A DNA stretch of 56,163 nt. Origin: an uncultured Methanosarcinales archaeon (lineage in GTDB: Archaea > Nanobdellota > Nanobdellia > Woesearchaeales > UBA10216). This document shows, piece after piece, positions 2 to 23,740 of the stretch. The translations under genes were made by a program, and so were the position numbers. Numbering within the stretch: the first letter of the stretch is position 1; each line of letters begins with the position of its first letter. The notes below the pieces were generated by a model. The model did not search any database, had not been told where the DNA came from, and worked only from the letters and a program-made list of their open reading frames with translations. Location of the stretch: positions 90,667 through 146,829 of the forward strand of contig CAZDCW010000001.1 in the NCBI GenBank assembly GCA_964504135.1, in the 5' to 3' direction.

Positions 2-787
2 ACAACCATAGTGCGGACAATTGCAAGGCTGATGGACCTTAAGTTCAGCAGGATTCAGAACACCCCTGACCTTATGCCTTCTGACGTGATTGGCACTTAC
101 GTTATTGAGGAGAACAATGGCAAGAGGGAGTTCCGCTTCCACCCCGGCCCGATTTTCGCCAATGTTGTGCTCGCTGATGAGATTAACAGGGCAACGCCAA
201 AGACCCAGTCAGCGATGCTGGAGGCTATGCAGGAAAAGCAGGTAACTGTTGGAAACTCCACGTTTAAGCTTGATGAGCCTTTCTTTGTATTGGCCACACA
301 AAACCCAATCGAACAGGAAGGCGTCTACCCTCTTCCAGAAGCCCAGGCGGACAGGTTCCTGTTGAAAATAAGGGTTTCCTATCCGACTTATCAGGAGGAG
401 ATGGAGATAGTTAACAGATACGGCGCTGAGCTTAAGGACCGCCGTGTTAAGGTCGTTCTTGACAAGTCCCAGCTTGTAGCCCTTCAGGAGCTGACAAGGC
501 AGGTTCCCATAGCTTCAGATTTGAAGGAGCGTGTTGTCAAGCTCATTTCCAAGACAAGGGGCTCGGAGCTTCTCGCCTACGGCGCATCCCCCAGAGCTAC
601 AATTGGCTTGATTCTGGCCGCTAAGGCCCGCGCACTGATTGACGGCCGCAACCATGTCTCATCTGAGGATATCCAGAAGATGGCCTTTCCGATTCTCCGC
701 CACAGGATTATCCTCAACTTCGAGGCAGAGCGCAAGGGCATGACAGCTGATGACGCAATCACCCAACTGCTCGAGAAGGTGAAGTAA
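2..787 (+). CDS. MoxR-like AAA+ ATPase (5' end cut by window edge)
   Basis: Frame is open from the window edge. Translation shows MoxR/AAA_3 hallmarks: VVLADEINRATPKTQSAMLEAMQEKQVTV, FFVLATQNPIEQEGVYPLPEAQADRFLLK, and YGASPRATIGL in the lid region. Confidence 0.9.
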   Translation, partial: TTIVRTIARLMDLKFSRIQNTPDLMPSDVIGTYVIEENNGKREFRFHPGPIFANVVLADEINRATPKTQSAMLEAMQEKQVTVGNSTFKLDEPFFVLATQNPIEQEGVYPLPEAQADRFLLKIRVSYPTYQEEMEIVNRYGAELKDRRVKVVLDKSQLVALQELTRQVPIASDLKERVVKLISKTRGSELLAYGASPRATIGLILAAKARALIDGRNHVSSEDIQKMAFPILRHRIILNFEAERKGMTADDAITQLLEKVK

Positions 788-867
788 AAGTGAACCTTGG
801 TGAATCCGACAACAAGCCAAAGTCTGGCAAAAAGAAGCTTGATGGGTAAAAAAGAAGGGGTGGGCGA

Positions 868-1473
868 GTGGTAACTAAATCATCGGTATTGTTACTCCTG
901 ATTATCGGACTGATTTTATTTATTGGATGTAACATCCAAACAAAAGGAGATGCCAATTCTATTTCAGGAAAGGTCATCCCAGAACAAGCGGGGATAAGAG
1001 TTCAGGCAATACAGAATTTATCACTAATTAATGAAACTTTGACGGATGAAAAAGGAAATTTTAAAATTGCTGGATTGAAAAAAGGGAATTACAGTCTATT
1101 GTTTAAATCAGATCATGAAGTTTACGTTTACAATAATAGGCAAAGAGAAACCGATATAAAAGATACGTTGAGCTCTAGTTCTTCAAATATTTTAATAGAC
1201 TTAAACAGAAGTTTGCCACTCATGTTTAAAGGGCTAATACTCGTCACATTTAAACCAAACATTTCTGATGAAGAAGTAAATGAAACTATAGATTCTTGCC
1301 AATGCAGATTAGCTGCAAAAGATTTGATTTTTGGGAAAAAAATCTATACGTTAGCTACCCCTCCAGATAAGACGGAATTTGAAATAGTAAGAGAACTTAG
1401 AAAAAATGAAAAAATAGAATCAGCGGACATAGACTTTATGACTTTTGCTGGAGACTATGGTACTAAGTACTAA
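868..1473 (+). CDS. putative lipoprotein with a carboxypeptidase-regulatory-like domain and a C-terminal subtilisin-prodomain (I9)-like domain
   Basis: GTG start preceded by GGGGTG. N-terminus MVTKSSVLLLLIIGLILFIGC has a lipobox-like Cys. GKVIP..TDEKGNFKIAGLKKGNYSLLF looks like a beta-sandwich motif. C-terminal LILVTFKPNISDEEV...EFEIVRELRKNEKIESADIDF resembles an S8 prodomain. Low-GC codon usage. Confidence 0.6.
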   Translation: MVTKSSVLLLLIIGLILFIGCNIQTKGDANSISGKVIPEQAGIRVQAIQNLSLINETLTDEKGNFKIAGLKKGNYSLLFKSDHEVYVYNNRQRETDIKDTLSSSSSNILIDLNRSLPLMFKGLILVTFKPNISDEEVNETIDSCQCRLAAKDLIFGKKIYTLATPPDKTEFEIVRELRKNEKIESADIDFMTFAGDYGTKY

Positions 1474-4400
1474 AACTAACAGAAAAGGGCAAATTTATCT
1501 TATTATAGCAATAGGCTTGTTTTCCATCATTTTTCAAGCAAATATTTCCTATTCAGTGACTGTAGGAGAAAACGAGCACTCTCATGAAAATAAAATTGAC
1601 TACCTGATAAGTGAAAAATTAAAAAGTCAAGAAAATGTTTATGCAACTGTTATATTAAAAGATGATAGCAATATAGCTTACGATAACGAACAATATGATC
1701 GAGAGTTAACCTATAAGAAAAGGTCTGCGCATTTTAATAAAAGTGAAGAAAAAGTGATTTCTATTCTTTCTAAATCCGAATTTAAATTGGATTATAAGTT
1801 TAAGTCCATGAATGCTTTTAGTGGTTACTTTTCTGAAGGAGCCATCTTGAAATTACAAAATAATCCTAACGTGTTATTTGTAGAAGCAAACAGAATTAAT
1901 AAACTAGGGCTTTCTGAAAGTGTAAAAAAAATTAATGTAGATCCTTATGTTTGGAACTTAGGTTTTACCGGTAATGGTTCCACCGTTTGTGTTTTAGATA
2001 CGGGTTTAGATTACACCCACCCTGATTTAGGAAACTGCACACGACCCCAATTTTTGGCGGGGAATTGTGTTAAAATTCCTGCCGGATATGATTTTTGTTC
2101 AAACAGTAATTGTACTTCAGAAGATAATGACCCAATGGACATCAACGGCCATGGCACCCTTGTTGGGGGAATAATTGGCTCAACAAATTCAACTTATAAA
2201 GGAGTCGCCCCTGATTCAAAACTTATAGCAATAAAAGTTTGTAGTGATGATGGTGGGTGCAGTACTATTGCAGAAGCAAAAGGAATTGACTGGTGCATAG
2301 ATAATTCAAGCTTATATGCCATTAAAGTTATATCAGAAAGTAATTATGATGGTTTAAATTACAATAGTTCAGAATGTCATTCTTTAGCGATTAATGCAAC
2401 CCAGGTTGAAACTGCTATTATTAATGCAAATAACAAAGGAATATTTTTTGATTCTATATCAGGAAATAACGGTTACACCAACGGTACATCTTGGCCGGGT
2501 TGTGCGAAAGGTGCTATTTCAGTTGGTGCAACAACAGATTCTGATAAGATTTGGGTAGAATCAAGTATCCGAGGTACAAGTAGATATTCTAATCTTGATT
2601 TATTGGCATATGGAGAAAACATTACTTCAACATCGGTTCATTGGTCAGAGGGGGAACCTTTCAGAACTTTTTCAGGGACCTCTTTCGCTGCTCCTCATGT
2701 TGCTGGAGCAGCTGCTTTGATGTTCCAGAAGGCTCAATTATTGAAGTATAACTTAACTCCTCAGGAAATTGAAGACACTTTGGCTAATACTGGAGTGCCC
2801 ATAGATGATAGACAATATAGCGGTTTTTATTATCCGAGGATAGATGTCTTGGCTGCGATTGGTAATTTAAGTGTTGTTGAGCTTGATTCTGACAGCAAAT
2901 TTGTTGACGGAAAGGTGTGGTGGGGTAGGACTTGGTCGCAGAGGTTTAATTTAAGAAATAGTACTGCTATCCTTGTTCAGTTAGAAGGTAAGAACCAGAA
3001 CGATATTCTTAATTTAAGTATTGTTGCGCCTAATGGCACTGAGTTGCCAGTAGGTACAAGCACGTTAGTTAATAAAATTGAAGTAAGAAGTACGCAAATA
3101 GGAGTCTGGAAGGTGAAGGTAAGTGGTCTTAAAACTACTCTTAATAATGAAGGAAATGTTTCAAAATTCGGTGTGGGTATTTATATTGCCGTTACACCTC
3201 CTGAAGATTCAGGAGATAAAACAGGAGGTATTAATTTTTCTAGGGCTGAATTGAGTTATATCTCAACCTGTAATCCTTCTAATGGTTTGGTGGCCGTTAT
3301 GAAAGGTGTCGAGGCTAATAGTTCTGCTGGTGATACAATCGTAAACATCACAAACGCTACTATTCAGGCTACTAATGCGTTTTTGACTGGTTTGGTTATT
3401 CCTAATGATAGAATATGGGTTACGATGGATACTGAGCCTATTCATAATGAGCCTTGGTTTAGAGGGGATGTGTCAAGGGTTGACCCAACTTTTGCGAGGA
3501 CTGAAGCTGCGAGGGTGATGTTTGATGCTGATGTGCAGTTGAAAATGGATACGCTTGGAGACAGTCAAAATATGATGCAGACTTTGATTTATGATTGGAT
3601 TGAGAATGTTTCGCATGATCCTGCGGTTGTTCCTTGGACTCATGTAAGAGCATGGATAAGTCCAGAATCAATTATGGCTAATGGTACTGATTGTAAGTTA
3701 TTTCTTACAAATGCTTCATTGAAGGTGCAGTCAGAAGTGATAAATGTTTGGTTAAAGGTTCCCGGTTATGATCAACAGCTTGAGGTGTTTAGGCAAAATC
3801 TGTCAAGCAGATGGTCTGACTTGGCTGAAGAAGCAGAAAGAAAAATTAACAATAATAGCGACCCATCATATGCTGAATTAAGACGAGTTTATTCATCAAT
3901 TGCCTTGGCGCAATGGTATAAAAAACAGAATAGGGATAAGTCCGTATTTAGCGACTTAATTGATACAAATAATATTACTGGTTTGGATATTGGTTTTAAT
4001 AGGTCCCATTATGAAAAACTAGCTGCTCAGCATATGTACACATTTTATTATGGCAATTATTATTATAGTGTTTATGGGGGAGTGGATATTACTAATGCCA
4101 CTACAAATTTAAATGGCAATATAAGTAATGCAACAAACAGCCAATTGAATGGTGCATTGATTAATTCTTACGTTAAGGAGGGGAGCAAATATTATTACAG
4201 TACCTTGGTTCAAGCTAGTAGGTCTAATTTAATGCCTTTAGCATTGGGTTTCAGTTCGCTTAATCCGACTCCTAATGAGACTGTTAATTTTAGTGTTGCT
4301 GTTGAGAATTCTGGAAAGCTTAATTCTTCTAATTTTACGGTTTATTTCTATCAGACGTTTACTTATCCTGATGGGTCTATGGTTAGGGAGCGAATTGGCG

Positions 4401-6082
4401 AAACCAATGTTTCTCCTTTAAGGACTGGTTCTATAATTTTAGTGAATAATTCTTGGAGGACTCCTGTTATTTTAGGTGATTATAATGTGACTGCTGTGAT
4501 TGATTATAAAAATGTAGTTGAAGAGTCTAATGAGCTTGATAATGAAATATCCGAGTCCGTCAGGGTTTATACGGATTATCCAGCAGCAACTATTCTTTCG
4601 CCTTCGGCTAATTCTAAGTCTTGTGGAACTACTACTTTTGTTGGTTCAGGGATAGATCCTCAGGATGGTGGCTTGAATGAAAGCAGGTTTAACTGGTCTT
4701 CAAGCAAGGATGGTTACCTTGGGAATGGCAGTTCTATTAGCATTAATTTATCCCTTGGAGTTCACTTGGTGAGTTTATCGGTTGTTGACAGTGAGGGTTT
4801 CACAGATAAGAGTAGCATTTCAGTCAATGTTGTTCTATGTAATAAGCCAATACCTTTGATTATTTCTCCATTGGGAAATAAAAGTTATGCTGAAGGGGAG
4901 AATATATACTTTGTTGGGATGGCTTCTGATGAGGAAGATGGTCAAGTTCCAAACTCTTCGCTTTCTTGGAATTCTAGTATTGACGGTGTTGTTGGAACTG
5001 GCTCATTTTTGTCCAACAGGACGCTATCTGTGGGTAATCAGACAATAACTTTGAAGGCTATTGATGAAACCGATCTGGTTGGCACTGCTGTTGTAAATAT
5101 CTCCATTAAAGAAGGAAAGCCTAACATTACGATAGCAAGCCCCATAAATAATCAGGTATTTATTCATAAGGCCTCGGTTAGTTTTAACAGCACGGCTTGG
5201 GATCCTCAGGATGGCGATATTTCATCTTCTTTAGTTTGGACTTCTAGCATCAAGGGCAATATCGGAGTTGGAAGGGCATTTAGCACTAACCTTTCAGTTG
5301 GCACGCATACAATCACGGCTACTATTGTGGATTCTCATGGTTTAAGTAATAGCAGTTCAGTGGTCATAAAGATTGAGCAGCCCCATTACCCGGACGTTTC
5401 GATTATATCTCCGAAGCACACTCAGGCATTTATTCATGGTAACAATATAACTTTCAAGGGTGCTTATAGTGATTTCGAAGACGCAGAAATTCCAAATAGT
5501 TCCCTTGTTTGGAATGCGAGCATAGATGGCGTTATTGGGAATGGTACTGAATTTGTTAAGTACAATTTTTCGATTGGAAATCACACCCTTTATTTTACTG
5601 TCAGTGACAGCGATGGAATGGTTACTTCTGCTAAAGTTAACATAACAATCAATCCTGCAATTCCCGCTCCATCAATCATTGTACCCGCTTATGGAGCAAT
5701 ATTTGCTCAATCAGCCCATATAGCATTTAATGGTTCAGTAACAGACTATGAGGATGGAATGTTGACTGGTAATTCCGTGAACTGGAGCTCTAATAAGAAC
5801 GGCTTTTTGGGTAATGGAACTTATCTTAACATTACTAATTTGTCGATTGGGACTCATTTGATAACGCTCAGCGCAAAGGACAATAACGGGTTAACTGGCT
5901 CAGCATCAATAAACATATTTGTGGTTGGCTTAAGTAAGAAACTGGTTAATCAATTTTCAGATGGTTCTAGTATAAAGAATATTACCTACTCTTATTCGGC
6001 AAATAAGTCCGAATATGTGTCTCTTCCAAAATCCGCTAATGTAACTTATGCTGCAATAAACATCAAGGGCCATTCACCATGA
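1457..6082 (+). CDS. secreted subtilisin-like (S8) serine protease with a long CARDB/Ig-like C-terminal extension
   Basis: Catalytic motifs occur in D-H-S order: VCVLDTGLD (Asp codon 1997-1999), NGHGTLVGG (His 2150-2152), SGTSFAAPHVAGAAAL (Ser 2681-2683). There is an N-terminal hydrophobic anchor KGQIYLIIAIGLFSIIF, the protein's own I9-like propeptide (...LQNNPNVLFVEANRINKL), a PPC/P-domain-like region, a CARDB-like domain (about 4225-4570) and five Ig-like repeats. ATG 1457 is preferred over TTG 1445. The stop overlaps the next start (ATGA at 6079). Confidence 0.9.
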   Translation: MVLSTKTNRKGQIYLIIAIGLFSIIFQANISYSVTVGENEHSHENKIDYLISEKLKSQENVYATVILKDDSNIAYDNEQYDRELTYKKRSAHFNKSEEKVISILSKSEFKLDYKFKSMNAFSGYFSEGAILKLQNNPNVLFVEANRINKLGLSESVKKINVDPYVWNLGFTGNGSTVCVLDTGLDYTHPDLGNCTRPQFLAGNCVKIPAGYDFCSNSNCTSEDNDPMDINGHGTLVGGIIGSTNSTYKGVAPDSKLIAIKVCSDDGGCSTIAEAKGIDWCIDNSSLYAIKVISESNYDGLNYNSSECHSLAINATQVETAIINANNKGIFFDSISGNNGYTNGTSWPGCAKGAISVGATTDSDKIWVESSIRGTSRYSNLDLLAYGENITSTSVHWSEGEPFRTFSGTSFAAPHVAGAAALMFQKAQLLKYNLTPQEIEDTLANTGVPIDDRQYSGFYYPRIDVLAAIGNLSVVELDSDSKFVDGKVWWGRTWSQRFNLRNSTAILVQLEGKNQNDILNLSIVAPNGTELPVGTSTLVNKIEVRSTQIGVWKVKVSGLKTTLNNEGNVSKFGVGIYIAVTPPEDSGDKTGGINFSRAELSYISTCNPSNGLVAVMKGVEANSSAGDTIVNITNATIQATNAFLTGLVIPNDRIWVTMDTEPIHNEPWFRGDVSRVDPTFARTEAARVMFDADVQLKMDTLGDSQNMMQTLIYDWIENVSHDPAVVPWTHVRAWISPESIMANGTDCKLFLTNASLKVQSEVINVWLKVPGYDQQLEVFRQNLSSRWSDLAEEAERKINNNSDPSYAELRRVYSSIALAQWYKKQNRDKSVFSDLIDTNNITGLDIGFNRSHYEKLAAQHMYTFYYGNYYYSVYGGVDITNATTNLNGNISNATNSQLNGALINSYVKEGSKYYYSTLVQASRSNLMPLALGFSSLNPTPNETVNFSVAVENSGKLNSSNFTVYFYQTFTYPDGSMVRERIGETNVSPLRTGSIILVNNSWRTPVILGDYNVTAVIDYKNVVEESNELDNEISESVRVYTDYPAATILSPSANSKSCGTTTFVGSGIDPQDGGLNESRFNWSSSKDGYLGNGSSISINLSLGVHLVSLSVVDSEGFTDKSSISVNVVLCNKPIPLIISPLGNKSYAEGENIYFVGMASDEEDGQVPNSSLSWNSSIDGVVGTGSFLSNRTLSVGNQTITLKAIDETDLVGTAVVNISIKEGKPNITIASPINNQVFIHKASVSFNSTAWDPQDGDISSSLVWTSSIKGNIGVGRAFSTNLSVGTHTITATIVDSHGLSNSSSVVIKIEQPHYPDVSIISPKHTQAFIHGNNITFKGAYSDFEDAEIPNSSLVWNASIDGVIGNGTEFVKYNFSIGNHTLYFTVSDSDGMVTSAKVNITINPAIPAPSIIVPAYGAIFAQSAHIAFNGSVTDYEDGMLTGNSVNWSSNKNGFLGNGTYLNITNLSIGTHLITLSAKDNNGLTGSASINIFVVGLSKKLVNQFSDGSSIKNITYSYSANKSEYVSLPKSANVTYAAINIKGHSP
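4576..5935 (+). repeat. five tandem ~90-aa Ig-like (PKD/HYR-like) coding repeats inside the S8 protease gene
   Basis: Repeat consensus is P..I.SP.....F.....I.F.G...D.EDG.....SL.W.SSIDG..G.G......LS.G.H.I.L...D..G......V.I.I. The five units start at ATILSPSA, PIPLIISP, PNITIASP, PDVSIISP and PAPSIIVP. Confidence 0.8.
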
Positions 6083-9000
6083 AAAAACAAATAATATTTG
6101 CATTAATAGTATTAGTATTTGCAGTAGCCGTTTTGGCTTTTAATGAGACAAATTCAGAAACTATTGATATTAACCCTTCTTCTAATGAAACTGTCTATTC
6201 GCCTCCAGTAGTATTCGATATTAATTTCACTGTGAATTCGACAATAAGCAATGAAACCCAAGCTACATCAAGTAATTTAATCATACTGACGAAGATTATA
6301 GAACTATTTGCTGATAAGGTCTCGGCAGTTAAGGGAGCTGTAATCAGAATAAGTGCCAAGCTTGTTGATGAGAATGAGAGCGCCTTGGCTTTAAAGCCTG
6401 TTTGGATCTATGCGAATGATACTTTGATAGGTGGAGAACAAACTGATGCAGAAGGATACATGTTTTTTGAGTGGAATACGTCTGAAACCATTCCTGGGCA
6501 ATACTTGATCAATGTAAGTTTCCCAGGACAAGTGAGGACATTACAGGAGACAATTATTTTACAGCCGAGCTACAATTTTAATGCAATTTCGATTGAACCA
6601 GAATCAGTAGTAAACAACATAGCTAATGAATCCGTTTCATCTATTGTTCAGGCAGAAAATGATTGGGCGGTCAATATTAATGGACCAAATAGCAAAGTTG
6701 GGAATTATCATTTGACTACGAAAGATACCGCTTGGACTATTTTGAATAATGACTACATTACGAAATACGTGGATTATGGGTTTGTTTATATTAACGATAC
6801 ATACTATCGTGTGGATTGGAAATGGAACGACCCATATGTAAAATTAATGTTAAATGATTGCATTCTTCTTGACGGCCAACAGCAGAAAAACTGTGTCAAA
6901 GATGTTTCAATTAGTAGTTTAACTGAAGGATTTGTTCCGCCTGGTATTGAAAAGCAGGATTTGAATGCCTATGCTAAAGAAATTGATTCGGAGTGTGGAT
7001 TATTGGGTCCGAGAGAAAAAAATTTCTGTAAAAATAACGCTGCGAAAAGGCATATTGTCAGTGTAAACTATGATTTGGACAGGTTTGTTTCTGATTATTT
7101 CCAAGGTAAAGGGGTCAACGACCTTAGGAGTTCTATTTCTTATTTGGCGGCAGAGGATGCGCCTAAGGAAGTAATTAGAGGTAATGCTGCCTTTATCGGA
7201 ACTGTAAACCCATTAAAAAAGGATAGCGGGAGATTTTATTTGGAGCTTAAGGATGGCTTTTATAATAGCAACGGATTAAGAGTAAAGTGGGGGCTAAACA
7301 GCGTTTTAGCCGAATTCAATAATAGCAAGATTGCTGAAAATCTTACATTTGCTGGCGACGGTAATATTTCCAGATATGGAAACATAACAAGGTTTATTGA
7401 AATGCCTAAAAATTCAAATGTTACTTCAGCTTTCTTGAACATCACAGGATATAAGGTTCCTGAGGGAACTTACACCGGAATATGGTTCAATATAACCAAC
7501 TACACATATTCTATTGGCAGCATAGTGTCTAATGGCACGCATTTATTCATAAGTGATAGAGCATATATGGGCATGGTGTACATGTATACGGCCAATTTGT
7601 CGAACCTAGGTCAAACAGGATTTGACGGAATATACTTTACTAAAAATGGCACTTTCTTTTGGAGAGTTGATGCTGGTGGGAACACTGCATACAGGCATTA
7701 TCTTAATGGTACTAGTACAGGAGTGTCTCATTCATTATCGGCAAATGGGATGGGCTATCCTACTCATATCACAACAAACACTACTAATTTTTGGGTAAAT
7801 GATTATTATGCTCCAGTATTTGATGCGATAATCCATAAATATGATATTTCCCTTTCTGATTTAAGTCAAAACATTACAATTGATGGTTCGATAGACGGGT
7901 GGCCAAATTCTGATTTCGCTCTAGGAGTCAATGGTATGGCTACCGATGGAACTTTTTTATGGATAATGGATGGGAACAATAGACGCATTTTCAAATATTA
8001 TGCTTCAAATGGCTCCTATCATAGCAATTGGAGCACTGCCTTAGATTTTTTAGATAATAACGGAATAGGAATCGACAGCAATTACATTTGGGTTGGCCAC
8101 TATAATGCCAACATTACTAAACATACCAGAAATAAGTTCCCCGACATTGTTTGGCTAGAGATAGGAACTCCAAATGGCGCTCATGAGTGGGATTATTCCG
8201 GTAATTTTAATGGGACTAATAAAACTTCAAACTTGGCATCGGCCCTTAATACAGCTTTGAATAATGGAAATTGTGATTGCACCGGGTGTTCATTGAATGG
8301 GAATAATTGTTCAATTCCTGTTCTATTCCATGCGGATACTCCTGGAATCTTAGAATATTCAAGTATAGTTGTGAATCATAATACTGCACCTTCATTTTTA
8401 GTTAATTCTACTGACGACTCAGACGCAATAAGTGCAACCGATAAGGGATTAAATGTTACTTTCTCTGCAAATATTAGTGATTTGGATAATGATGCGGTTA
8501 AGATTGTTTTTTGTGATTCTGCTGGTAGGTCGGGGCTTGGTTGTCTGTATCTTGAATACTGCAATATCGGTTTTGGTTTGCCTGGTTTCAAGTCTTGCCA
8601 ATACAATACTAGCGGCTTAGCGGGTATGGAATATAATTGGACTTCTTTTGCCTGTGATAACAATAGTGTCTGTACATCTGGCGTGAATGGCACATTTTAT
8701 ATTGCAAGGCCTAAGGATCCTGCTATGTTTGTGAATGGAAGCCAAGTTTGGAATTATTCTGGTCTGTTTGATGGTCCTCAAACGGTTGAGAATTTTGATG
8801 ATGAGTTGAGGACCGAGTTGTCTGGGTGCCAGGCGATCAACGGCTCCTGTAATGTTTCGTTTGTTTTCTATTCTAGTGAAAAAGGCAAGCTTGAGCTGTC
8901 GCTCATCAATATACAGTATGACCTATATGATACTGAGCCGCCAGTTATACACAACATTTCTGTTCAGCCTAAGCCTGTTTTTATAAATTCAACCATGAAT

Positions 9001-12000
9001 GTCACTGTGAATGTCACTGATAATGTAAATGTGACACTTGTTTCTGCTACTCATAGGGAGGCGTCGATTAATCTGTCGTATAATGAGACAACAAGATTGT
9101 GGAAAGGAACAATGCCTTCTCCCACCACAACCGGTATTGTTCAGCTTAACATTACCGCTGTGGATTCATCTAATTTAACAGCCACCAATTCGACTTCTGG
9201 AAGTGGGTCTGGTAGTTCAGGCTCTTCTTGTCCGCCTGGTTACTCTTGCATCTCCTCAGAAGGAGGAAATAGTAGCAGTGCTGATTTGATGGTTTATCCG
9301 GGGGACATAATAAATTCACCTTCAATTATGCGAAGCAATAACTCTGTTACTTTTAACGTTACAATTTACAATTTTGGAGGTACCACTGCGTCAAATTTCA
9401 AGGTTGCCCTTAAGATGGATGGTGTGCATGTTAACAATAACACTATTAGCTTAGGTGCCTCTAGCAGTACTGTCACACAGTTCTTTTGGAATTCGACTGC
9501 TGGAAATCATACTGTCCAGGTTTCTGCTGATTTCACGAATCTTATAGAAGAGTCCAATGAGACTAATAATAATGCTTCAATCAATATAACTGTTGAGGAT
9601 ACTATTCCGCCCTCAATTTCAAACATTGAGACACAGAGGGGTAGTTTGGTTATTAGGGTGAATATCAGTGACGAGCAGAATATTAGCTCTGCTTCTGCTT
9701 TGGTGAATGGTACTGAGATTCAGCTTTTGTATAACCAATCCTCGAAGTTGTATGAGGGTTCGTCGACTTCCGTGCAACCCGGAACTTATCCGATGTTAAT
9801 TAAGGCAGGTGATTTGAGCGGTTTGGTCACTACTGTGCAAAGCTCTATTACTGTTTATGCAGATTCGATTGATTTGAGGCTCGGCCAAGATGATTTCTGG
9901 TTTTCGGAACCATCTCCTTCTGATCAGGACGTAATTCAGACTGTTGCCAGGGTTCATAACAAGGGTGTTAATGTTTCTTCTAGTTTTATTGTTGAATTCT
10001 TAGTGGATAATGAGTCTAAGTTGAATAGTACCATTTCGGTTGATGGTGAGAGTAATGTTTCGGTTGTTTATAATTGGACAGCTTCTTTTGGGAACAGGAC
10101 ATTTAAGGTAAAAGTGGATTCAAGGAATAATGTTTCTGAGGTGAACGAGTCGAATAATGAGGTTTCAAGGAGCATTAATGTCTCTGACGATTCTCCTCCA
10201 GTTATTCGTAAGTTGATGTTGCCTGAGGTTCCTTATGTTGGGTCAGGATTTGTTGTTTTGGCCAATATCTCGGATAACATTAATGTTAGTAGGGTTAACT
10301 TATCGCTTAATTCTTCGGAAGTCAGTTTTTCATTTAATGCGACATCTGGGCTTTATGAGAATCTTACAATTTCCTCTCCTCCGGCTGCTGGAACTTATAA
10401 TATCACACTTACTGCTACGGATGTAAACTCTTTGGCCACTTCCTTGCGGGAAGAGATCGTTGTTTATGGAGTTCAGCCGGACCTTGTTGTTGGCGTTGGG
10501 GATGTTGAGCTAGAACCGAATAATGTTTCTGAAAATAACTTGTTAGGTATTAATGTGACTTCCTTTAATAATGGAGGCTCTGATGCTGGTAGCTTCAAAG
10601 TTGAGTTGCTTGTTGATGGAATTTCCAGAACTAATAATAGCTTGTCTATCGCTAAGGCTTCTAGGAATTTGACCCGTTTCACTTGGAATGCTTCTTATGG
10701 CTCGCACAACATTTCGATTAAACTTGATTCTGACAATTCTGTCGCAGAGTCTAACGAATCAAACAATGTCAGAAACCTTTCTTTCTTCGTGCTGGATATT
10801 GCTCCGCCGCCTGCATTAACCTTGGTAGCAACTCCGTCTAACTGGACTAATCAAACTTCCCACAATATCTCTTGGACAGCAGTGACTGATCCAAATGGGC
10901 TTAGCAGGTATGAATACAGAATTAACTATGGCAATTGGTCGAGTGTCGGCTTAAATGTTTCATTTTTAACCCCCTCTTTATCAGAAGGGATTCACACGAT
11001 TTATGTCAGAGCTACAGACACGCCCGGAAACATAGCCGAGCCAAGTAACATATCTGTATATATCGACATTACTCCGCCCAATACACCAGTTATAAGGGAG
11101 TGGCATTCAGGAAGCAACTGGTCAGGCCATAACACCCCTTTTTTAAGCTGGACTGATCCGGGTGATAAAGGGAGTGGGGTTAAGAACTTCACAGTGAGCG
11201 TTAATGACGGTCAAGAAACAGGTCTGGGTAGCAACTTAAGCTATCATAGCGCTAGCTTGACCACAGGCACACATACATTCAAAGTAAGGGCGTATGACGC
11301 CTTAGGCCAAGCGAGCAACTGGTCAAACACAATCACAATATACATAGACACAACTATTCCCAATGCTCCTCAAGTTACTTCGCCCACGCATCCAGATAAC
11401 AACACTTGGTACGACATCAATACCCCCGTTTTTAACATCACACCTCCATCAGATAGTTCTGGAATCCAAGGCTATTACTACATCCTCGATAAAAAGACGA
11501 ACACTTCTCCAGACACAATGTCTTTCTGGACAACCAATATGACGATAAACCTCACGAATTTAGGCAGTAATCAGTATGGAATCAACGGGACCAACAGTAC
11601 AGACTTGGGTGTGGCTAACGGTGAGTGGTATATGCATGTGATTGCCAAAGATAATGTAGGAAATCTGGGTACGGGCATAGCTCACTACAAGGTTAACATC
11701 AATGTTTCTAAACTACTTGTTACTAACTTTACTGTTCTTCACAAATCAGGATTTTATAGGATCTTTGGATTCTCTGTTTTGAATAGCGGATCTAACAACG
11801 TCACCGATGTTAATTGGTCAATGAATACTGGGGAATCAATAGTTTCTTCACAATACCTTATGAATCTGAGCGGAGGAGAATCTGTAAAGGTCTACTTTGC
11901 AAATACATACTCCAATTATGGTGCTTACAGCGTGATTCCTTCAGCATCTTCCGGCTCTATGATTGGCGCAACCACCTCAACAGTTACAATCAGTCCAATA

Positions 12001-12285
12001 GAAGTTGCAAACTTATCTGTTTTGAACTCTACAAGTAGAAAAAGGATTTTTGGGTTTGACATTATGAACTTATTATCAAATAACCTATCGAATGCGTCCT
12101 GGGCATTTGATACTAAGAATAATGATGTAATTAATTCATCGAGTAACTTTAGTTTGCTGCCTTATGAAAGGGTACTTATTTTTGTTGAACATAATTTCAC
12201 CAGTTCAGGAGTGTTTAACGTTAACAGTACTGTTAGGAATAGCAGCTTTGTTGATTGGCAAAACTTAAGCGTCAATGTAGGCTAA
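6079..12285 (+). CDS. giant (2068 aa) secreted surface/adhesin-like protein with CARDB and Ig-like modules
   Basis: Signal peptide MKKQIIFALIVLVFAVAVLAF. Three CARDB-type domains end in ESNE.NN-like motifs (about 9280-9595, 9866-10183, 10476-10790), each preceded by an Ig-like module beginning D.xPP[VS]I. More Ig/FN3-like modules lie at about 10800-11700, followed by two C-terminal ~90-aa repeats. N-x-S/T sequons are dense. Confidence 0.85.
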   Translation: MKKQIIFALIVLVFAVAVLAFNETNSETIDINPSSNETVYSPPVVFDINFTVNSTISNETQATSSNLIILTKIIELFADKVSAVKGAVIRISAKLVDENESALALKPVWIYANDTLIGGEQTDAEGYMFFEWNTSETIPGQYLINVSFPGQVRTLQETIILQPSYNFNAISIEPESVVNNIANESVSSIVQAENDWAVNINGPNSKVGNYHLTTKDTAWTILNNDYITKYVDYGFVYINDTYYRVDWKWNDPYVKLMLNDCILLDGQQQKNCVKDVSISSLTEGFVPPGIEKQDLNAYAKEIDSECGLLGPREKNFCKNNAAKRHIVSVNYDLDRFVSDYFQGKGVNDLRSSISYLAAEDAPKEVIRGNAAFIGTVNPLKKDSGRFYLELKDGFYNSNGLRVKWGLNSVLAEFNNSKIAENLTFAGDGNISRYGNITRFIEMPKNSNVTSAFLNITGYKVPEGTYTGIWFNITNYTYSIGSIVSNGTHLFISDRAYMGMVYMYTANLSNLGQTGFDGIYFTKNGTFFWRVDAGGNTAYRHYLNGTSTGVSHSLSANGMGYPTHITTNTTNFWVNDYYAPVFDAIIHKYDISLSDLSQNITIDGSIDGWPNSDFALGVNGMATDGTFLWIMDGNNRRIFKYYASNGSYHSNWSTALDFLDNNGIGIDSNYIWVGHYNANITKHTRNKFPDIVWLEIGTPNGAHEWDYSGNFNGTNKTSNLASALNTALNNGNCDCTGCSLNGNNCSIPVLFHADTPGILEYSSIVVNHNTAPSFLVNSTDDSDAISATDKGLNVTFSANISDLDNDAVKIVFCDSAGRSGLGCLYLEYCNIGFGLPGFKSCQYNTSGLAGMEYNWTSFACDNNSVCTSGVNGTFYIARPKDPAMFVNGSQVWNYSGLFDGPQTVENFDDELRTELSGCQAINGSCNVSFVFYSSEKGKLELSLINIQYDLYDTEPPVIHNISVQPKPVFINSTMNVTVNVTDNVNVTLVSATHREASINLSYNETTRLWKGTMPSPTTTGIVQLNITAVDSSNLTATNSTSGSGSGSSGSSCPPGYSCISSEGGNSSSADLMVYPGDIINSPSIMRSNNSVTFNVTIYNFGGTTASNFKVALKMDGVHVNNNTISLGASSSTVTQFFWNSTAGNHTVQVSADFTNLIEESNETNNNASINITVEDTIPPSISNIETQRGSLVIRVNISDEQNISSASALVNGTEIQLLYNQSSKLYEGSSTSVQPGTYPMLIKAGDLSGLVTTVQSSITVYADSIDLRLGQDDFWFSEPSPSDQDVIQTVARVHNKGVNVSSSFIVEFLVDNESKLNSTISVDGESNVSVVYNWTASFGNRTFKVKVDSRNNVSEVNESNNEVSRSINVSDDSPPVIRKLMLPEVPYVGSGFVVLANISDNINVSRVNLSLNSSEVSFSFNATSGLYENLTISSPPAAGTYNITLTATDVNSLATSLREEIVVYGVQPDLVVGVGDVELEPNNVSENNLLGINVTSFNNGGSDAGSFKVELLVDGISRTNNSLSIAKASRNLTRFTWNASYGSHNISIKLDSDNSVAESNESNNVRNLSFFVLDIAPPPALTLVATPSNWTNQTSHNISWTAVTDPNGLSRYEYRINYGNWSSVGLNVSFLTPSLSEGIHTIYVRATDTPGNIAEPSNISVYIDITPPNTPVIREWHSGSNWSGHNTPFLSWTDPGDKGSGVKNFTVSVNDGQETGLGSNLSYHSASLTTGTHTFKVRAYDALGQASNWSNTITIYIDTTIPNAPQVTSPTHPDNNTWYDINTPVFNITPPSDSSGIQGYYYILDKKTNTSPDTMSFWTTNMTINLTNLGSNQYGINGTNSTDLGVANGEWYMHVIAKDNVGNLGTGIAHYKVNINVSKLLVTNFTVLHKSGFYRIFGFSVLNSGSNNVTDVNWSMNTGESIVSSQYLMNLSGGESVKVYFANTYSNYGAYSVIPSASSGSMIGATTSTVTISPIEVANLSVLNSTSRKRIFGFDIMNLLSNNLSNASWAFDTKNNDVINSSSNFSLLPYERVLIFVEHNFTSSGVFNVNSTVRNSSFVDWQNLSVNVG
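8929..10790 (+). repeat. three tandem [Ig-like + CARDB] coding modules inside the 2068-aa gene
   Basis: Modules start at DTEPPVIHNIS, DTIPPSISNIE and DDSPPVIRKLM. Each CARDB part ends with IEESNETNNNASINITV, VSEVNESNNEVSRSINV or VAESNESNNVRNLSF. Confidence 0.75.
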
Positions 12286-12318
12286 AATGATTAATGCTTT
12301 TCAGGAGGCGATGTAAAA

Positions 12319-14190
12319 ATGAAGAAAAAAACCTGGTTGTCAATGATTTTATTCATTTTTGTTGTTGCTATGTTAAGTGGAGCAGTTGTGGGTCAGCGAC
12401 ACGTTAAAACAGCCTATCTTCAACATGTGAAATCAGAAGCAGGTCTCACCCAAGCTTATACATGGTATAAAATCTGCAATCCTGCAAATTTTGGCTACTC
12501 AATAAGCGACTCATCCAGGCTCAGTGTGAAATTTAATGAAACTGAAAATTCGCTCAGAGGCTACGGATTCGCTATACTGTCAAATGTGAGTAAACAGGTA
12601 ACGGATTACTCTACTGTCTGTAATTCTTACAATATTTCTGCAGAAGCTAACGCATCTAATCCTTCAGGAAGCCTTGCTTTTAATAATTGCAGTGTTATAG
12701 CTGTTGGTAATAGGTCAGTTGTTGAACAAAAGTGGGTTCCATTTTCTCCTGTTGGGCAGACCTTAAAGGCGAACACATGTTACGATATCAAGGTGGAAGG
12801 GAATTATCCGGCGAAAACGGGGCAGACAGCGATTGACAACGTCGTTAGTTATGCAGGCTTTACTTTCAGTGAATTCGCATGGTGGAACGTTAGCTACAAC
12901 ACAAGCTTTAGGTTCTGGCTGAAGGAGCCAAATGGCACCACCAGAACTTATGCGCCTTTAAGGGTGAATATTACCGGTATTTCCGGTAAGATAGATAACT
13001 GTAGCAATGGAGTTTTGACGCAGAATATCAGCGGTTCCTTGGTAGAAATACCTTCCGAAGTTGTCCTTAGCAGAGTGGGCCAAGGCGGAAGTTGCTATAT
13101 AAGATTTTTAGCTAACCTTTCCGCTAATGAGAATGCCTCGTTTGTGTTCTTCACAAATGCAAGTGTTACAAGGCCTAAGTACCTGAGTGGTTGGAGTCCC
13201 CAGTTGTGGTATAATCAGCCCTGGGGACCCAGTGCTTTTGCTGTTTGGGATGATGCTGTAGTAGCCGCTAATGGGACGGTTGTATACCAGGGCTTGGATA
13301 TGAGGGCGGGCGGCTGGTCTCTTGATTACGGGTCTGGAGATATTGTTTATGATGCGGGCAGAAGTCTTAGAGACCGGGGTGGTTCTACTTTTATCTTTTC
13401 TTCAGCAGGAGGGGGTTGCGGAGTGGATGCGCAGTGTAAGATGTGTATGTATCTTAATTCTACAGACTCTGGTGATGGCTCACAAGGCCACCATACGCTT
13501 GACGCTTTGGACACTGCAGGAGGCGCCGAAATTAGTATTTATGATTATCCTGGTGTAAGCAGCACTTACTATGGGTATGGCTGGGGCGGGCCTAATTTCG
13601 TGTCGAATTATCCAAAATCAAAGCAATGGGTGTGGCTGTGTGGAATAGTCAATAGCACAAAAAAGCAGGTTTGGATTGGACCTAAAAGCGAAGCTAACAC
13701 TTCAGGCACAGCAGACCTGATAGGCAAGATGCGGATAACTTCAAATGGCGATGCAGGAACATATCATTGGAGTAAAGACCGTATGGCTTCAAACAACTCG
13801 TATAATGTTTATAATGAGTCGGATTATCCTGTTTTCGCTATGGGACTGGAGGAAACTCAGGCAGGCTCATCAGGCAGTATAACAGAAAGCGAAGCCAGGA
13901 CTGCTATGGAGCAGGGCATAAATAGCAGCGTGTTAGGGCCCAGCGCTTCTAAGCTTACGGATCAGAAGATTTTTTCCAGAAACTTAGTTAACGCCCAGGT
14001 TCTGGGAAGATTCGATAAGGTGGCTATTGGTGGTAATCAGAGGTGGGCGTTTAATTACGTTACTGTGGGGGATACTAATGTGAACATGTTCAATTTGACG
14101 CCCGTGTTATATACACTGGAAATGTCAAATCTCAATAGTGCCCAAATCACAGATATGGTAAGCAAACTAATAAATAACACGAAACAGTAG
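12319..14190 (+). CDS. secreted protein, DUF2341/LamG-like (tentative)
   Basis: GGAGG lies about 10 nt upstream of the ATG. Signal peptide MKKKTWLSMILFIFVVAMLSGAVVG. WWNVSYNTSFRFWLKEPNGTTRTYAPLRVNITG resembles the start of DUF2341 domains. Low-GC codon usage. No C-terminal anchor was seen. Confidence 0.65.
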   Translation: MKKKTWLSMILFIFVVAMLSGAVVGQRHVKTAYLQHVKSEAGLTQAYTWYKICNPANFGYSISDSSRLSVKFNETENSLRGYGFAILSNVSKQVTDYSTVCNSYNISAEANASNPSGSLAFNNCSVIAVGNRSVVEQKWVPFSPVGQTLKANTCYDIKVEGNYPAKTGQTAIDNVVSYAGFTFSEFAWWNVSYNTSFRFWLKEPNGTTRTYAPLRVNITGISGKIDNCSNGVLTQNISGSLVEIPSEVVLSRVGQGGSCYIRFLANLSANENASFVFFTNASVTRPKYLSGWSPQLWYNQPWGPSAFAVWDDAVVAANGTVVYQGLDMRAGGWSLDYGSGDIVYDAGRSLRDRGGSTFIFSSAGGGCGVDAQCKMCMYLNSTDSGDGSQGHHTLDALDTAGGAEISIYDYPGVSSTYYGYGWGGPNFVSNYPKSKQWVWLCGIVNSTKKQVWIGPKSEANTSGTADLIGKMRITSNGDAGTYHWSKDRMASNNSYNVYNESDYPVFAMGLEETQAGSSGSITESEARTAMEQGINSSVLGPSASKLTDQKIFSRNLVNAQVLGRFDKVAIGGNQRWAFNYVTVGDTNVNMFNLTPVLYTLEMSNLNSAQITDMVSKLINNTKQ

Positions 14191-14199
14191 AGTTCCAAA

Positions 14200-15045
14200 A
14201 TGATAACCACAGAGTTCCTTTCAGGCCTTGACCGCTTCAACCTGGTGATGAGGAAGCGGGTTACTTCAAAGTATGCAGGCTCCAGGCCTAGCCTTATGAC
14301 CGGCAGGGGCGCGCAGATTAAGGATTACAGGCTTTACGCCGCTGGTGATGACTTCAGGCAGATTGACTGGAAGGTCTATGCAAGGACTGATAACCTTTAT
14401 GTGAAGCGCTTTGAGGAGGAAAGGAATCTTACAGTCCACGTAATCCTGGACATCAGCTCCAGCATGGCTTATGGCAGGCCGGGCAAGTATGACTTCGCCG
14501 CCATGCTTGGGATTGGCTTTGCCTACATTGCCATGAGGGGCAATGAGAAGTTCCAGTATGCTGTCTTTTCCGATAATCTTAGGGTTTTCCAGCCGAAGCG
14601 GGGCATGGGCCATCTTGCCGGCATGGTTGAGCTTCTGAATTCCACCAAGCCCTTTGGCAAGTCTGACTTTGCGAAGGCGATGGTGTCTTACAGGAAGATT
14701 CTGGGCAGCCGTTCAATGCTTATAGTTGTTTCAGACTTCCTTTATGACCTTGAGAACATAAAGGATGGGCTGAAGGTGCTTGGCAATGCAGACACAAAGC
14801 TTGTCCAGGTCCTTGACAGGACAGAACGTAATTTAGGTATTGAGGGCGACTTGAAGCTTAAGGATTCTGAGAGCGGCGAAGTCATGAGGACTTATGTCAG
14901 CGCAAAGCTTAAGTCCGACTATCAGCGCCAGCTTGAGCATCACATTTCAGAAATAAGGAAGGCTGCTATCCCGGTTAAGGCATCCTTCAATGTAGTAACG
15001 ACAGATACCCCCATTTTTGACGCTTTTTACCAGATTTTGAGGTGA
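14200..15045 (+). CDS. DUF58 (vWA-like) protein, the usual MoxR partner
   Basis: Family motifs YRLYAAGDDFRQIDWKVYARTDNLYVKRFEEE and the MIDAS-like VILDISSSMAYG. GC returns to about 50% at this gene. Confidence 0.9.
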   Translation: MITTEFLSGLDRFNLVMRKRVTSKYAGSRPSLMTGRGAQIKDYRLYAAGDDFRQIDWKVYARTDNLYVKRFEEERNLTVHVILDISSSMAYGRPGKYDFAAMLGIGFAYIAMRGNEKFQYAVFSDNLRVFQPKRGMGHLAGMVELLNSTKPFGKSDFAKAMVSYRKILGSRSMLIVVSDFLYDLENIKDGLKVLGNADTKLVQVLDRTERNLGIEGDLKLKDSESGEVMRTYVSAKLKSDYQRQLEHHISEIRKAAIPVKASFNVVTTDTPIFDAFYQILR

Positions 15046-15054
15046 GGGGCGGCA
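14998..15054 (+). repeat. direct repeat copy A (authentic 3' end of the DUF58 gene)
   Basis: acgacagat(accccc)atttttgacgctttttaccagattttgaggtgaggggcggca. The 38-nt core 15013-15050 matches 15605-15642 with 2 mismatches. Confidence 0.85.
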
Positions 15055-15374
15055 TGTTTCGCGTCTTTACAACTGATGAATTTGACAAGGATTTGGCCAA
15101 GCTGGACACTTCTGAGCAGGTCAGGGTAAAAAAGATACTGGGGCAGCTTCAGCAGCAGGGAGCTAACGTAGGCAAGCCTCTTTCAGGTTTATCATTTTTT
15201 AGAGAAAAAAAGTTTGATGGCAAACGACTGTATTTTTTGGCTTATAAAGAGTTTTTGATTATTCTGGTAATCGCAATTTCTGGAAAAAAGGCGCAGCAGG
15301 CAACGATAAACAGCATTTTGACCGACTTGATTCAATATCAAAGCCGCATTTTTGACTTGGCAGGAAAAAAGTAA
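15054..15374 (+). CDS. RelE/ParE-superfamily-like toxin (tentative)
   Basis: About 106 aa. FRVFTTDEFDKDLAKLDTSEQVRVKKILGQL...GKPLSGLSFFREKKFDGKRLYFLAY..LIILVIAISGKK follows the RelE/ParE pattern (F.kdlkkL ... gk.L ... R.g.yR..Y). ATG 15054 is preferred over GTG 15042. The gene body is very AT-rich. Confidence 0.5.
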   Translation: MFRVFTTDEFDKDLAKLDTSEQVRVKKILGQLQQQGANVGKPLSGLSFFREKKFDGKRLYFLAYKEFLIILVIAISGKKAQQATINSILTDLIQYQSRIFDLAGKK

Positions 15375-15375
15375 A

Positions 15376-15579
15376 CTACCCTTTCCACTCCCTAACTCTT
15401 CCGCTCTTAAGGTCTTCTAGGCTTTTTTTTATTTTAGCCACCAGCTCTTCATCGACTTCAGCACCCCTTTTCAGGCGTTCATATTCTTCCTTGGGTATAG
15501 TTACTGTTTCCATAACGCGGACAGGTGGGTGGTGCACTTTAAATACCTTTTTATTGTGCGTTGTGTACAGGCTGGGCAT
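15376..15579 (-). CDS. small hypothetical protein, antitoxin-like (start may be 15513)
   Basis: The ORF is 67 aa. The internal Met version reads METVTIPKEEYERLKRGAEVDEELVAKIKKSLEDLKSGRVREWKG (strand plus helix, a typical small antitoxin layout). It is convergent with the RelE-like gene, with a 1-nt gap between the two stops. No clear SD. Confidence 0.35.
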   Translation of the reverse strand: MPSLYTTHNKKVFKVHHPPVRVMETVTIPKEEYERLKRGAEVDEELVAKIKKSLEDLKSGRVREWKG

Positions 15580-15593
15580 CTTTCCACGTGGTC

Positions 15594-15646
15594 ACGACAG
15601 ATCGATTTTTGACGCTTTTTACCGGATTTTGAAGTGAGGGGCGCCA
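15594..15646 (+). repeat. direct repeat copy B (non-coding, decayed duplicate of the DUF58 3' end)
   Basis: acgacagat(cg)atttttgacgctttttaccggattttgaagtgaggggcgcca, 592 nt downstream of copy A. A 4-nt indel breaks the DUF58 frame. Confidence 0.85.
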
Positions 15647-15655
15647 CGCGCAGCA

Positions 15656-20763: not shown

Positions 20764-21096
20764 GCACTGTTCGGCAGCCCTGTATCTGATTCCCCGGATC
20801 TGGTTCCAGGAGTATGCAAACGGCTCAAGAATCCTTCTTATTCCGGTATACCTTGACCTGTGCTCTTTCACTATCTGCTGCGCCTCCTCAGGGTGGATTG
20901 CGAAGTATGCGTCAAACAGCTTTCTGAAGCTGTCAGGAAGCAGGGCTGCTGTCATGATATCTGCCTCATTCTTTGGCGTGTCGTACCGTTCGAAAATCCT
21001 TCTGTATGCTTCCTCTATTGCCGCTTCGCCTGTCAGCCCCCTGTATTCTATGCCATTAGTAGGCCGAGCCTGTTCTTCCACTTTGTTCACCTCCAT
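20722..21096 (-). CDS. hypothetical protein (124 aa)
   Basis: ORF with backbone-like composition and no recognisable motif. Its 3' end overlaps the convergent T2SSF gene by 42 nt. Confidence 0.45.
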   Translation of the reverse strand: MEVNKVEEQARPTNGIEYRGLTGEAAIEEAYRRIFERYDTPKNEADIMTAALLPDSFRKLFDAYFAIHPEEAQQIVKEHRSRYTGIRRILEPFAYSWNQIRGIRYRAAEQCLKQPLEQEIEGKG

Positions 21097-21512: not shown

Positions 21513-21563
21513 AACAAGTGGTGGAAGCCGCTTGGATTTTATTTTATTGTAGACTATGGTCTA

Positions 21564-22199: not shown

Positions 22200-22225
22200 T
22201 TTTTCTAAGGGGTTAATTTGCCTGA

Positions 22226-23594: not shown

Positions 23595-23740
23595 TGAGGC
23601 GCAGTTTGGCTTGTTAATCCTATAGGCAGGCAACAATGTTGGCGAGCCGGGGGATGCCCCATCCGGGGTGGCGAGAGCGCCGCAGCGCGTCCAACCATTG
23701 CTGTTGCCTGCCCTTTGTTTCTTAAACTTGATTTGCCACT

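Follow-up and report, generated by a model that had tools for sequence, protein, structure and literature searches.

A strain-specific and probably acquired surface-protein island between moxR and DUF58 in a Woesearchaeota archaeon

The stretch considered here, hereafter the window, is a 56,163-nt segment of the contig CAZDCW010000001.1 (assembly GCA_964504135.1, positions 90,667 to 146,829 of the forward strand), whose host is a Woesearchaeota (DPANN) archaeon; the homologs of its DUF58 gene bore names that were overwhelmingly Woesearchaeota or Nanoarchaeota. At the beginning of the window, a moxR gene and a DUF58 gene are separated by a block of 13.4 kb (788–14199) composed of four genes in one direction, referred to as open reading frames (ORFs) 1 to 4. 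The original prediction, made from the sequence alone, had offered two explanations for this block, namely foreign cargo inserted into a moxR-DUF58 operon, or a MoxR/DUF58 chaperone pair dedicated to the maturation of a giant protease and adhesin set. The evidence presented below indicates that the block is most probably a strain-specific, acquired surface-protein island with no dedicated tie to MoxR/DUF58. Its features are given in Table 1 in window positions, which are used throughout, and numbers preceded by L designate fetched loci of relatives or homologs, L002 being GCA_016192905.1.

Table 1. Features of the moxR–DUF58 interval in the window (aa, amino acids; GC, guanine-plus-cytosine fraction).
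Feature	Position	Strand	Remarks
moxR 3′ part, MoxR-type AAA+ ATPase	11–787	+	5′ end before window start; left flank of the block
Left breakpoint	782–785	+	L002 homology stops at 785 (AAGT)
Insert spacer, 80 nt	788–867	+	GC 0.46; GGGGTG Shine-Dalgarno-like motif ahead of ORF1 start
ORF1, 201 aa	868–1473	+	
ORF2, ~1541 aa	1457–6082	+	ATG at 1457; alternative TTG start at 1445 possible
ORF3, 2068 aa	6079–12285	+	ATGA overlap with ORF2
ORF4, 623 aa	12319–14190	+	33-nt gap after ORF3
Right breakpoint	14198–14201	+	L002 homology restarts at 14198
DUF58 (vWA-like) gene, intact	14200–15045	+	9-nt gap after ORF4; right flank of the block

The moxR product matched Pfam AAA_3 (E-value, E, of 2.4e-55, beginning at profile position 17) and AAA_lid_2, and the DUF58 product matched Pfam DUF58 (E 1e-44), with 98% amino-acid identity to its L002 counterpart. 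The ORF map reproduced the coordinates and spacings first reported for the block, including an ORF1/ORF2 overlap of 17 nt when ORF2 starts at the ATG at 1457, the ATGA overlap at 6079, and the gaps of 33 nt and 9 nt. The claim that all four products carry N-terminal signal or anchor sequences was also borne out, since each presented a single, strongly hydrophobic segment at the N-terminus, and none presented a further transmembrane-like segment.

The comparison with the closest relative, found on the 624-kb contig L002, revealed an occupied and an empty form of the same site. Nucleotide identity was 96.9–97.4% on both sides of the block (96.9% for moxR), and in L002 the moxR and DUF58 genes share 4 nt (GTGA) and no insert is present. 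The moxR stop codon is TAA (785–787) in the window versus a TGA within the GTGA overlap in L002, and the DUF58 start codon is ATG versus GTG. The source being a metagenome-assembled contig whose composition changes abruptly at both ends of the block, these junctions could reflect an assembly chimera, in which a low-GC block from another organism had been mis-joined; moreover, the left junction had no independent assembly support, an exact-protein look-up of ORF1 having returned no record, probably due to the choice of another start by the gene caller. However, the right junction, comprising the 3′ end of ORF3, ORF4, DUF58 and the next gene, was reproduced with 100% identity over 5.5 kb in the independent Logan assembly L001. 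In addition, one mis-join would have had to coincide exactly with a stop codon and another to fall 9 nt ahead of a start codon, with all six ORFs preserved, and the ATG start of DUF58 against the GTG of L002 is consistent with a real junction, so that a chimera is extremely improbable.

The neighborhood of the two flanking genes was surveyed in 80 species-level Woesearchaeota loci (~85 loci in all). The adjacency on which the original prediction relied held in this lineage, as moxR was directly upstream of DUF58 in 78 of the 80 loci and in L002, but not in the window. The gap between the two genes was ≤100 nt in about two thirds of the 80 loci, often with an overlap, and 130–1063 nt in ~25, 1063 nt being the maximum. 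Among the five next-closest relatives, whose DUF58 products were 67–70% identical to that of the window, the gaps were 8 (L096), 31 (L100), 82 (L098), 580 and 764 nt; the block is thus absent from the same site in close relatives, as is typical of genomic islands, with the overlap in L002 and gaps of 8–82 nt in three further genomes. No moxR was detected upstream of DUF58 by tblastn in L036, which has a 286-aa ORF directly upstream, or in L014, which has a divergent gene, and neither of them contains a large insert. Cargo resembling that of the block, in which a protease of family S8, a CARDB-repeat giant and an ORF4-like protein follow each other, was not found between or beside moxR and DUF58 in any of the ~85 loci, and the six-gene arrangement of the window, whose presence in relatives had been named as an outcome that would speak against foreign cargo, did not recur. 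In this way, the empty junction is most parsimoniously the ancestral state, and the 13.4-kb block stands alone among the surveyed loci.

Some of the larger gaps in this slot hold unrelated small ORFs, such as a toxin-antitoxin-like pair in L007, a secreted 192-aa protein in L009, a membrane protein in L033 and a four-helix-bundle protein. The 92-aa and 117-aa ORFs of L007 and the 192-aa ORF of L009 were considered as relatives of the block and rejected, being unrelated to ORF1 or to any other block gene. The moxR–DUF58 junction may represent a soft spot within the operon at which small cargo is recurrently accommodated. It was also observed that in L098 (7423–9918), and in L099 as well, the moxR product comprises 831 aa with Intein_splicing and LAGLIDADG matches within the AAA+ domain, and the L098 MoxR therefore appears to contain an intein.

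Homologs of the block genes were found at unrelated sites in at least four other contexts, another property of genomic islands. ORF3 presented only two real homologs among 5.8 billion proteins. In L104, an S8 protease (full-length identity of 59.5% with ORF2), an ORF3-like protein (60%, ~1200 aa) and an ORF4-like protein are encoded in succession, all with 4-nt overlaps, and genes for 6PGD, a cyclase, NUDIX and aspartokinase/homoserine dehydrogenase come next. In L092–94, an S8 protease gene is followed with a 4-nt overlap by that of a CARDB giant (~45% identity between ORF3 and the L092 gene), with a DUF2341 giant upstream and HIT genes downstream. L102/103 contain ORF3-like and ORF4-like (73%) genes and then an unrelated gene, and L101, from the same genome as L009, has an ORF4-like gene (66%) beside purine-biosynthesis genes. 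Neither moxR nor DUF58 was detected by tblastn in L104–L116, and the annotation of the other contexts showed neither of them. The S8/CARDB-giant/ORF4 triad is thus a portable, recurrent and translationally coupled module, and no description of it as a conserved coupled unit was found in the literature.

Two further observations concern the ORF4 family. In L104 (4776–5630 and 9995–10879), the ORF3-like giant begins with an ORF4-family N-terminal domain (~280 aa, '...YLQLVENKADITSGYTWYKACNP...') that is absent from the ORF3 of the window, a configuration that indicates domain shuffling between the two genes of the module. In L002 (14420–17829, versus 18811–18821 in the window), three extra genes coding for 185, 254 and 659 aa, with low GC content at third codon positions (GC3) and absent from the window, lie between the genes of a T2SSE-type ATPase and a T2SSF-type platform protein, in a type IV pilus-like locus. 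The 659-aa protein is an ORF4 paralog, 60% identical at its C-terminus and 29% in the N-terminal domain, and its gene and ORF4 can be aligned (66% identity) from the 3′ end through the downstream spacer up to the ATG of the next gene.

The composition of the block also sets it apart from its surroundings, the backbone being represented by 42 kb of the window. The GC content of the block was 39.0% against 48.6% for the remaining window, and the 1-kb profile fell from ~0.49 to 0.30–0.43 over the block; the hand-counted values that had first drawn attention to this contrast were exact (58.3% at 121–180 and 50.0% at 14401–14460, versus 31.7% at 901–960 and 33.3% at 7021–7080). GC3 was 0.27, 0.30, 0.36 and 0.42 for ORF1 to ORF4, compared with 0.63 for moxR, 0.61 for DUF58, 0.55–0.66 for the flanking genes and 0.51–0.66 for most other genes of the window. 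With its own amino acids and the codon preferences of the backbone, the block would be expected to present a GC3 of 0.589, whereas 0.345 was observed, and synonymous usage differed between block and backbone with a chi-square of 1531 (41 degrees of freedom). The difference was seen for TTA plus TTG among Leu codons (0.60 in the block, 0.11 in the backbone), AAT for Asn (0.71, 0.31), GAT for Asp (0.74, 0.21) and GGT for Gly (0.31, 0.03). A shift in codon choice beyond an amino-acid effect, as proposed at the outset on the basis of Leu and Lys, was thus found overall and strongly for Leu, but the shift of Lys to AAA was only moderate (0.55 versus 0.37) and weaker than implied. This composition is atypical beyond amino-acid content against the window backbone, as expected for a genomic island, and the codon preferences of the block were similar to those of the L092 homologs.

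The possibility was also weighed that the block genes are native and AT-rich by family, their codons reflecting a slow translation that serves secretion or glycosylation, a low level of expression or a mutational bias. The modules are indeed AT-richer than their neighbors in every context examined, with GC3 values of 0.34, 0.38 and 0.49 versus ~0.55 in L104, 0.25–0.27 versus 0.47–0.56 in L092, and 0.26 versus 0.36–0.41 in L101. However, native secreted genes of the window that are rich in N-x-S/T sequons (22638–26967, minus strand) use the backbone-preferred codons even more strongly (GC3 0.615, AAC 0.93 for Asn, GAC 0.94 for Asp), and therefore the low GC3 of the block is not a general effect of the secretome; such an effect would have told against the foreign-cargo explanation. 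Besides, the block is missing from the 97%-identical L002, and unrelated accessory genes present equally low GC3, among them the extras of the L002 pilus locus, a PIN toxin gene of L002 and an AbiEii pocket of the window. Low GC3 in this lineage follows the status of accessory, exchangeable DNA and not the protein family, and native genes with family-intrinsic codons are a quite unlikely explanation.

The gene order in the relatives also bears on the second explanation first offered, in which MoxR and DUF58 would be a dedicated chaperone that matures, activates or assembles the giant protease and the adhesins. The six genes are co-directional with minimal spacing, and neither a T-run in the 80-nt spacer (788–867) nor, in the short spacers between the genes, any stretch of at least six T was found, so that co-transcription is plausible; moreover, dedicated clients are known for MoxR/vWA pairs. 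However, the association was seen in one genome only among the ~85 loci, the 97%-identical L002 has the pair without the block, and the module occurs in at least four other contexts where no moxR or DUF58 was detected. The codon usage likewise speaks of different histories of the block and its flanks. In the relatives, the order is TRASH/zf-FCS, BatA-like DUF7407/7408, VWA, a 164-aa gene, DUF7502, MoxR and DUF58, which is an archaeal Bat-like operon with moxR-DUF58 as its last two genes, and its BatA-like and VWA membrane proteins are the partners to be expected for MoxR. Cargo co-conserved with the MoxR/vWA pair across genomes, as a dedicated client should be, was not found. A chaperone dedicated to the block products is very improbable, and the idea of a maturation pathway built on MoxR/DUF58 is removed.

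The block products were compared with domain profiles, as the original prediction had recommended, and with known structures, and domains were identified in ORF2 and ORF3, whereas ORF1 gave only sub-threshold matches and ORF4 none. All four are rich in N-x-S/T sequons (3.0–5.9 per 100 aa, versus 0–1 in cytoplasmic proteins) and would thus be heavily N-glycosylatable. ORF1 has a signal segment with a lipobox-like 'FIGC' and is a probable lipoprotein with a CarboxypepD_reg/transthyretin-like β-sandwich, as suggested by a sub-threshold match to CarbopepD_reg_2 (E 2.9e-5). Its C-terminal half, which resembled Fervidolysin_NPro (E 0.2, also sub-threshold), may be a subtilase-prodomain-like domain; in the single-sequence AlphaFold2 model, with a predicted local distance difference test (pLDDT) score of 44, only the secondary-structure pattern was usable, which was β-α-β-β-α-β for residues 123–194. 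ORF2 matched Peptidase_S8 (E 5e-40) and CARDB (E 6.6e-14), as well as Inhibitor_I9 (E 5.4e-6, over the gathering score on the N-terminal fragment), and its order is an I9 propeptide, the S8 catalytic domain, a β-jelly-roll-like domain, CARDB, and ~500 residues of immunoglobulin (Ig)-like repeats. Its best PDB match was 3afg (E 1.4e-27; tool output 'Subtilisin-like serine protease'), which we take to be Tk-SP, an extracellular protease of the archaeon Thermococcus kodakarensis. Residues 123–566 could be aligned with the catalytic domain of 3afg and the β-domain that comes after it, and the Asp, His and Ser motifs LDTG, NGHGT and GTSFAAPH are aligned to those of this protease. By the criteria of the family, ORF2 is predicted to be a secreted or anchored, active-looking S8 subtilase with an I9 propeptide.

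ORF3 presented a signal peptide, three CARDB matches (E 3.9e-40), Ig/Y_Y_Y-like repeats and 5.9 sequons per 100 aa, and its large N-terminal region had no family match; it is predicted to be a giant surface glycoprotein of adhesin-like type, whose translation is coupled to that of ORF2 via the ATGA overlap. No ATPase or VirB4-like domain, as described for giants of the SPEARE type, was found in ORF2 or ORF3 with Pfam and NCBIfam. ORF4 consists of a signal peptide, an N-terminal domain (~10–290) and a C-terminal domain of ~100 aa (~520–622), both of which also occur in numerous surface proteins of the DPANN type. Searches of Pfam, NCBIfam and the PDB gave no match for ORF4, its model from a four-sequence alignment had a pLDDT of 33, and three homologs were found in the protein search (P0130, 73%; P0131, 66%). 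The C-terminal domain (window 13878–14190), itself without Pfam or PDB match, was recovered in more than 400 cluster representatives with E<1e-10, always at the extreme C-terminus of proteins ranging from 109 to >2000 aa. In a sample of 25 members, the partner domains were Laminin_G_3 (seven members), S8, NHL and other β-propellers, Ig, RHS and DUF2341. In DPANN archaea, this domain is a candidate for the anchoring of proteins at the surface or for their sorting.

The flanks were inspected for traces of the event that separated moxR from DUF58. The 4 nt of the left breakpoint recur at the right one in the form AAAT, which is microhomology only; a target-site duplication was rejected, since neither the 4-nt 'AA(G/A)T' microhomology nor a loose 'AAGTGA..ACC' likeness to the DUF58 start was significant. 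A provirus origin was also rejected, a scan of IMG/VR with the ORF4 family having given only partial matches of 26% identity. Spacer positions 788–812 resembled the post-moxR spacer of L007 in a MAFFT alignment, and an att-like or cassette-boundary site considered on this basis was not upheld: when the 80-nt spacer was compared with all fetched loci by blastn-short, only chance-level 12–14-mers were obtained, and a substitution-only fuzzy regular-expression scan found nothing.

The divergence between the window and L002 rose toward the left junction, from 0.4% (35–300) to 3.5% (301–700) and 9.4% (701–785), almost all of it synonymous, while it was flat at ~2% on the right side. At the start of the window, 16 of 34 positions mismatched L002 (1–34), compared with 1 of 266 at 35–300, and this pattern in moxR suggests mosaic recombination tracts. 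The gradient on the left can be reconciled with an import through homologous recombination whose crossover fell within the 3′ end of moxR, although few differences were counted and they do not show the direction. The ratio of non-synonymous to synonymous substitution rates (dN/dS) against L002 was 0.01 for moxR and 0.10 for DUF58 (five non-synonymous changes), and both genes are still under purifying selection. A relaxed constraint on DUF58 was considered in view of 0.01–0.05 for its neighbors, and was rejected, five non-synonymous changes being too few.

These flanks, with a single close comparator, also leave room for the opposite history, in which the island would be ancestral and would have been lost in L002, as could happen if recombination with an empty allele restored the overlap. 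A synonymous divergence (dS) of 0.07–0.19 gives time for a gain or a loss, the occupancy of the junction turns over (other small cargo in L007, L009 and ~25 of the 80 species), and the rise in divergence marks a recombination tract without showing its direction. However, a single insertion is more parsimonious than a deletion recreating the exact GTGA overlap of distant relatives, three of the five outgroups are essentially empty, and the block presents no amelioration toward the codon usage of the backbone. A loss in L002 is unlikely, and even in that case the block would count as an acquired island.

The reading of the block as an acquired island has to be weighed against several points. Only one close relative was available for comparison, from which the window strain, with the dS mentioned above, is not near-clonal, and no independent assembly support was found for the left junction. 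The mobility signatures of genomic islands were lacking, as the original prediction had noted: no tRNA gene was found in the window, no direct or inverted repeats flank the block beyond the 4-nt microhomology, and no integrase or transposase was present among the 29 ORFs scanned. Since the module is AT-rich in all host contexts seen, its low GC3 may be partly intrinsic to the gene family, the contrast in composition takes 42 kb of the window as its backbone, and the function of the products is read from domains only.

The block lies in a plasticity zone, since within 23 kb at least four further indels were counted between the window strain and L002. One of these regions, the cassette at 15042–15650, contains a RelE/ParE-like toxin gene of 110 aa (15042–15374), which overlaps the DUF58 stop, and a convergent 67-aa ORF, whereas a PIN/RHH pair occupies this site in L002. 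A direct repeat of ~76 nt (42 nt at 93%) at 14975–15054 and 15576–15650 brackets these two genes and duplicates the 3′ end of DUF58, and the cassette looks like a small insertion that duplicated the end of its target gene. A further 1.45 kb with backbone-like GC (20772–22225), containing an HTH_10 regulator gene (21564–22199, minus strand), is absent from L002. Besides, low-GC pockets were observed at 49146–50416, with an AbiEii-type toxin (E 4.7e-26) and a 166-aa upstream partner, and at 27885–28685 and 40874–41368 (both on the minus strand), with genes of GC3 ~0.37 and no significant family match; these three pockets are probably further accessory insertions.

Taken together, the occupied and empty alleles, the foreign codon usage and the portability of the module support the first of the two explanations, foreign cargo in a moxR-DUF58 operon. 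The block would have been acquired from an AT-richer gene pool, most likely from other Woesearchaeota, and inserted exactly at the 4-nt overlap of moxR and DUF58, at the end of the Bat-like operon, with both reading frames kept intact, this junction being no more than a tolerated insertion point. Judging from its domains, the island would remodel the cell surface: ORF2 may process or degrade surface or host-envelope proteins, ORF1 might, by a weak inference, be a prodomain-like partner or inhibitor of ORF2, and ORF3 and ORF4 may be adhesins that mediate cell-cell (host) contact and, at the same time, variable surface antigens. DUF58 would now be expressed either from a very long read-through transcript or from a promoter within the AT-rich island, both being equally possible.

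A broader proposal, which may hold but is doubtful on balance, is that the triad is a self-contained 'surface-variation cassette', which would recombine among Woesearchaeota without mobility genes of its own while keeping its AT-richness and its 4-nt coupling. The moxR–DUF58 junction, in which ~30% of the species carry small unrelated cargo, would then be one of several preferred landing slots in operons, where the cargo is expressed by read-through, and the C-terminal domain of ORF4 would be a DPANN-specific anchoring or sorting signal.

Woesearchaeota and other DPANN archaea are believed to live on the surface of host cells, to which they attach, and their surface proteins likely determine the host range. 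In this context, two strains that are ~97% identical differ by a complete protease-plus-adhesin set that is portable to several genomic sites. This finding may be of use for picking candidate genes of host interaction, for reading strain variation in groundwater metagenomes, and for defining a C-terminal domain that is widespread and unannotated in DPANN archaea. The island is of a kind already described in these archaea and not a new chaperone-client system; more notable are its exact placement at a 4-nt overlap, the failure to find mobility genes, and the recurrence of the coupled S8/CARDB/ORF4 module.

Low-GC, horizontally acquired islands are common in DPANN archaea (PMC10266531), and strain-specific surface proteins with CARDB, PKD and β-propeller domains, together with LamG proteins, were described in one of them on islands or near type IV pilus loci (PMC5498576). 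The present block is like the islands of Ca. Nanohalococcus occultus SVXNc (PMC10266531) and Ca. Mancarchaeum acidiphilum Mia14 (PMC5498576) in its strain or organism specificity, in a GC content below that of the genome and in its surface or host-interaction cargo, and one of the Mia14 islands is likewise integrated within a gene (PMC5498576). Unlike these islands, the block has no recognizable mobility or defense genes, being composed of four secreted-protein genes only, and it lies at the 4-nt overlap of two operon genes, neither of which is truncated. ORF2 and ORF3 resemble the giant surface proteins of Mia14 as giant, signal-bearing proteins with CARDB and Ig repeats, and the link between LamG proteins and type IV pili in that organism (PMC5498576) is paralleled by the C-terminal domain of ORF4, which is common to Laminin_G_3 proteins, and by the ORF4 paralog in the pilus-like locus of L002. 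In contrast to the Mia14 giants, the coupled S8/CARDB/ORF4 triad recurs in several genomes, and ORF2 joins a subtilase to adhesin-type repeats.

Bat (Bacteroides aerotolerance) clusters are organized as moxR-DUF58-batA followed by further genes. Such clusters combine MoxR with vWA proteins, and MoxR is thought to act on vWA/MIDAS proteins (PMC3557215). The flanking genes in the relatives are similar in membership, but their order differs, moxR-DUF58 being last in the archaeal operon, and the pair is split in the window strain. The SPEARE-type giant of nanohaloarchaea is a single membrane-anchored protein with a VirB4/TraG-like ATPase domain (PMC10266531), which ORF2 and ORF3 resemble only as large DPANN surface proteins. 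The 3afg protease is like ORF2 in its catalytic domain and β-domain, but ORF2 is about three times longer, with ~1000 residues of sequon-rich CARDB and Ig-like repeats. Finally, the 'metagenomic islands' known, for example, from Haloquadratum are strain-variable, often AT-richer, and code for giant surface glycoproteins thought to diversify the recognition by phages or partners. Those islands are usually defined by gaps in metagenome recruitment in free-living prokaryotes, whereas the host of the present block is presumably a symbiont with a small genome.

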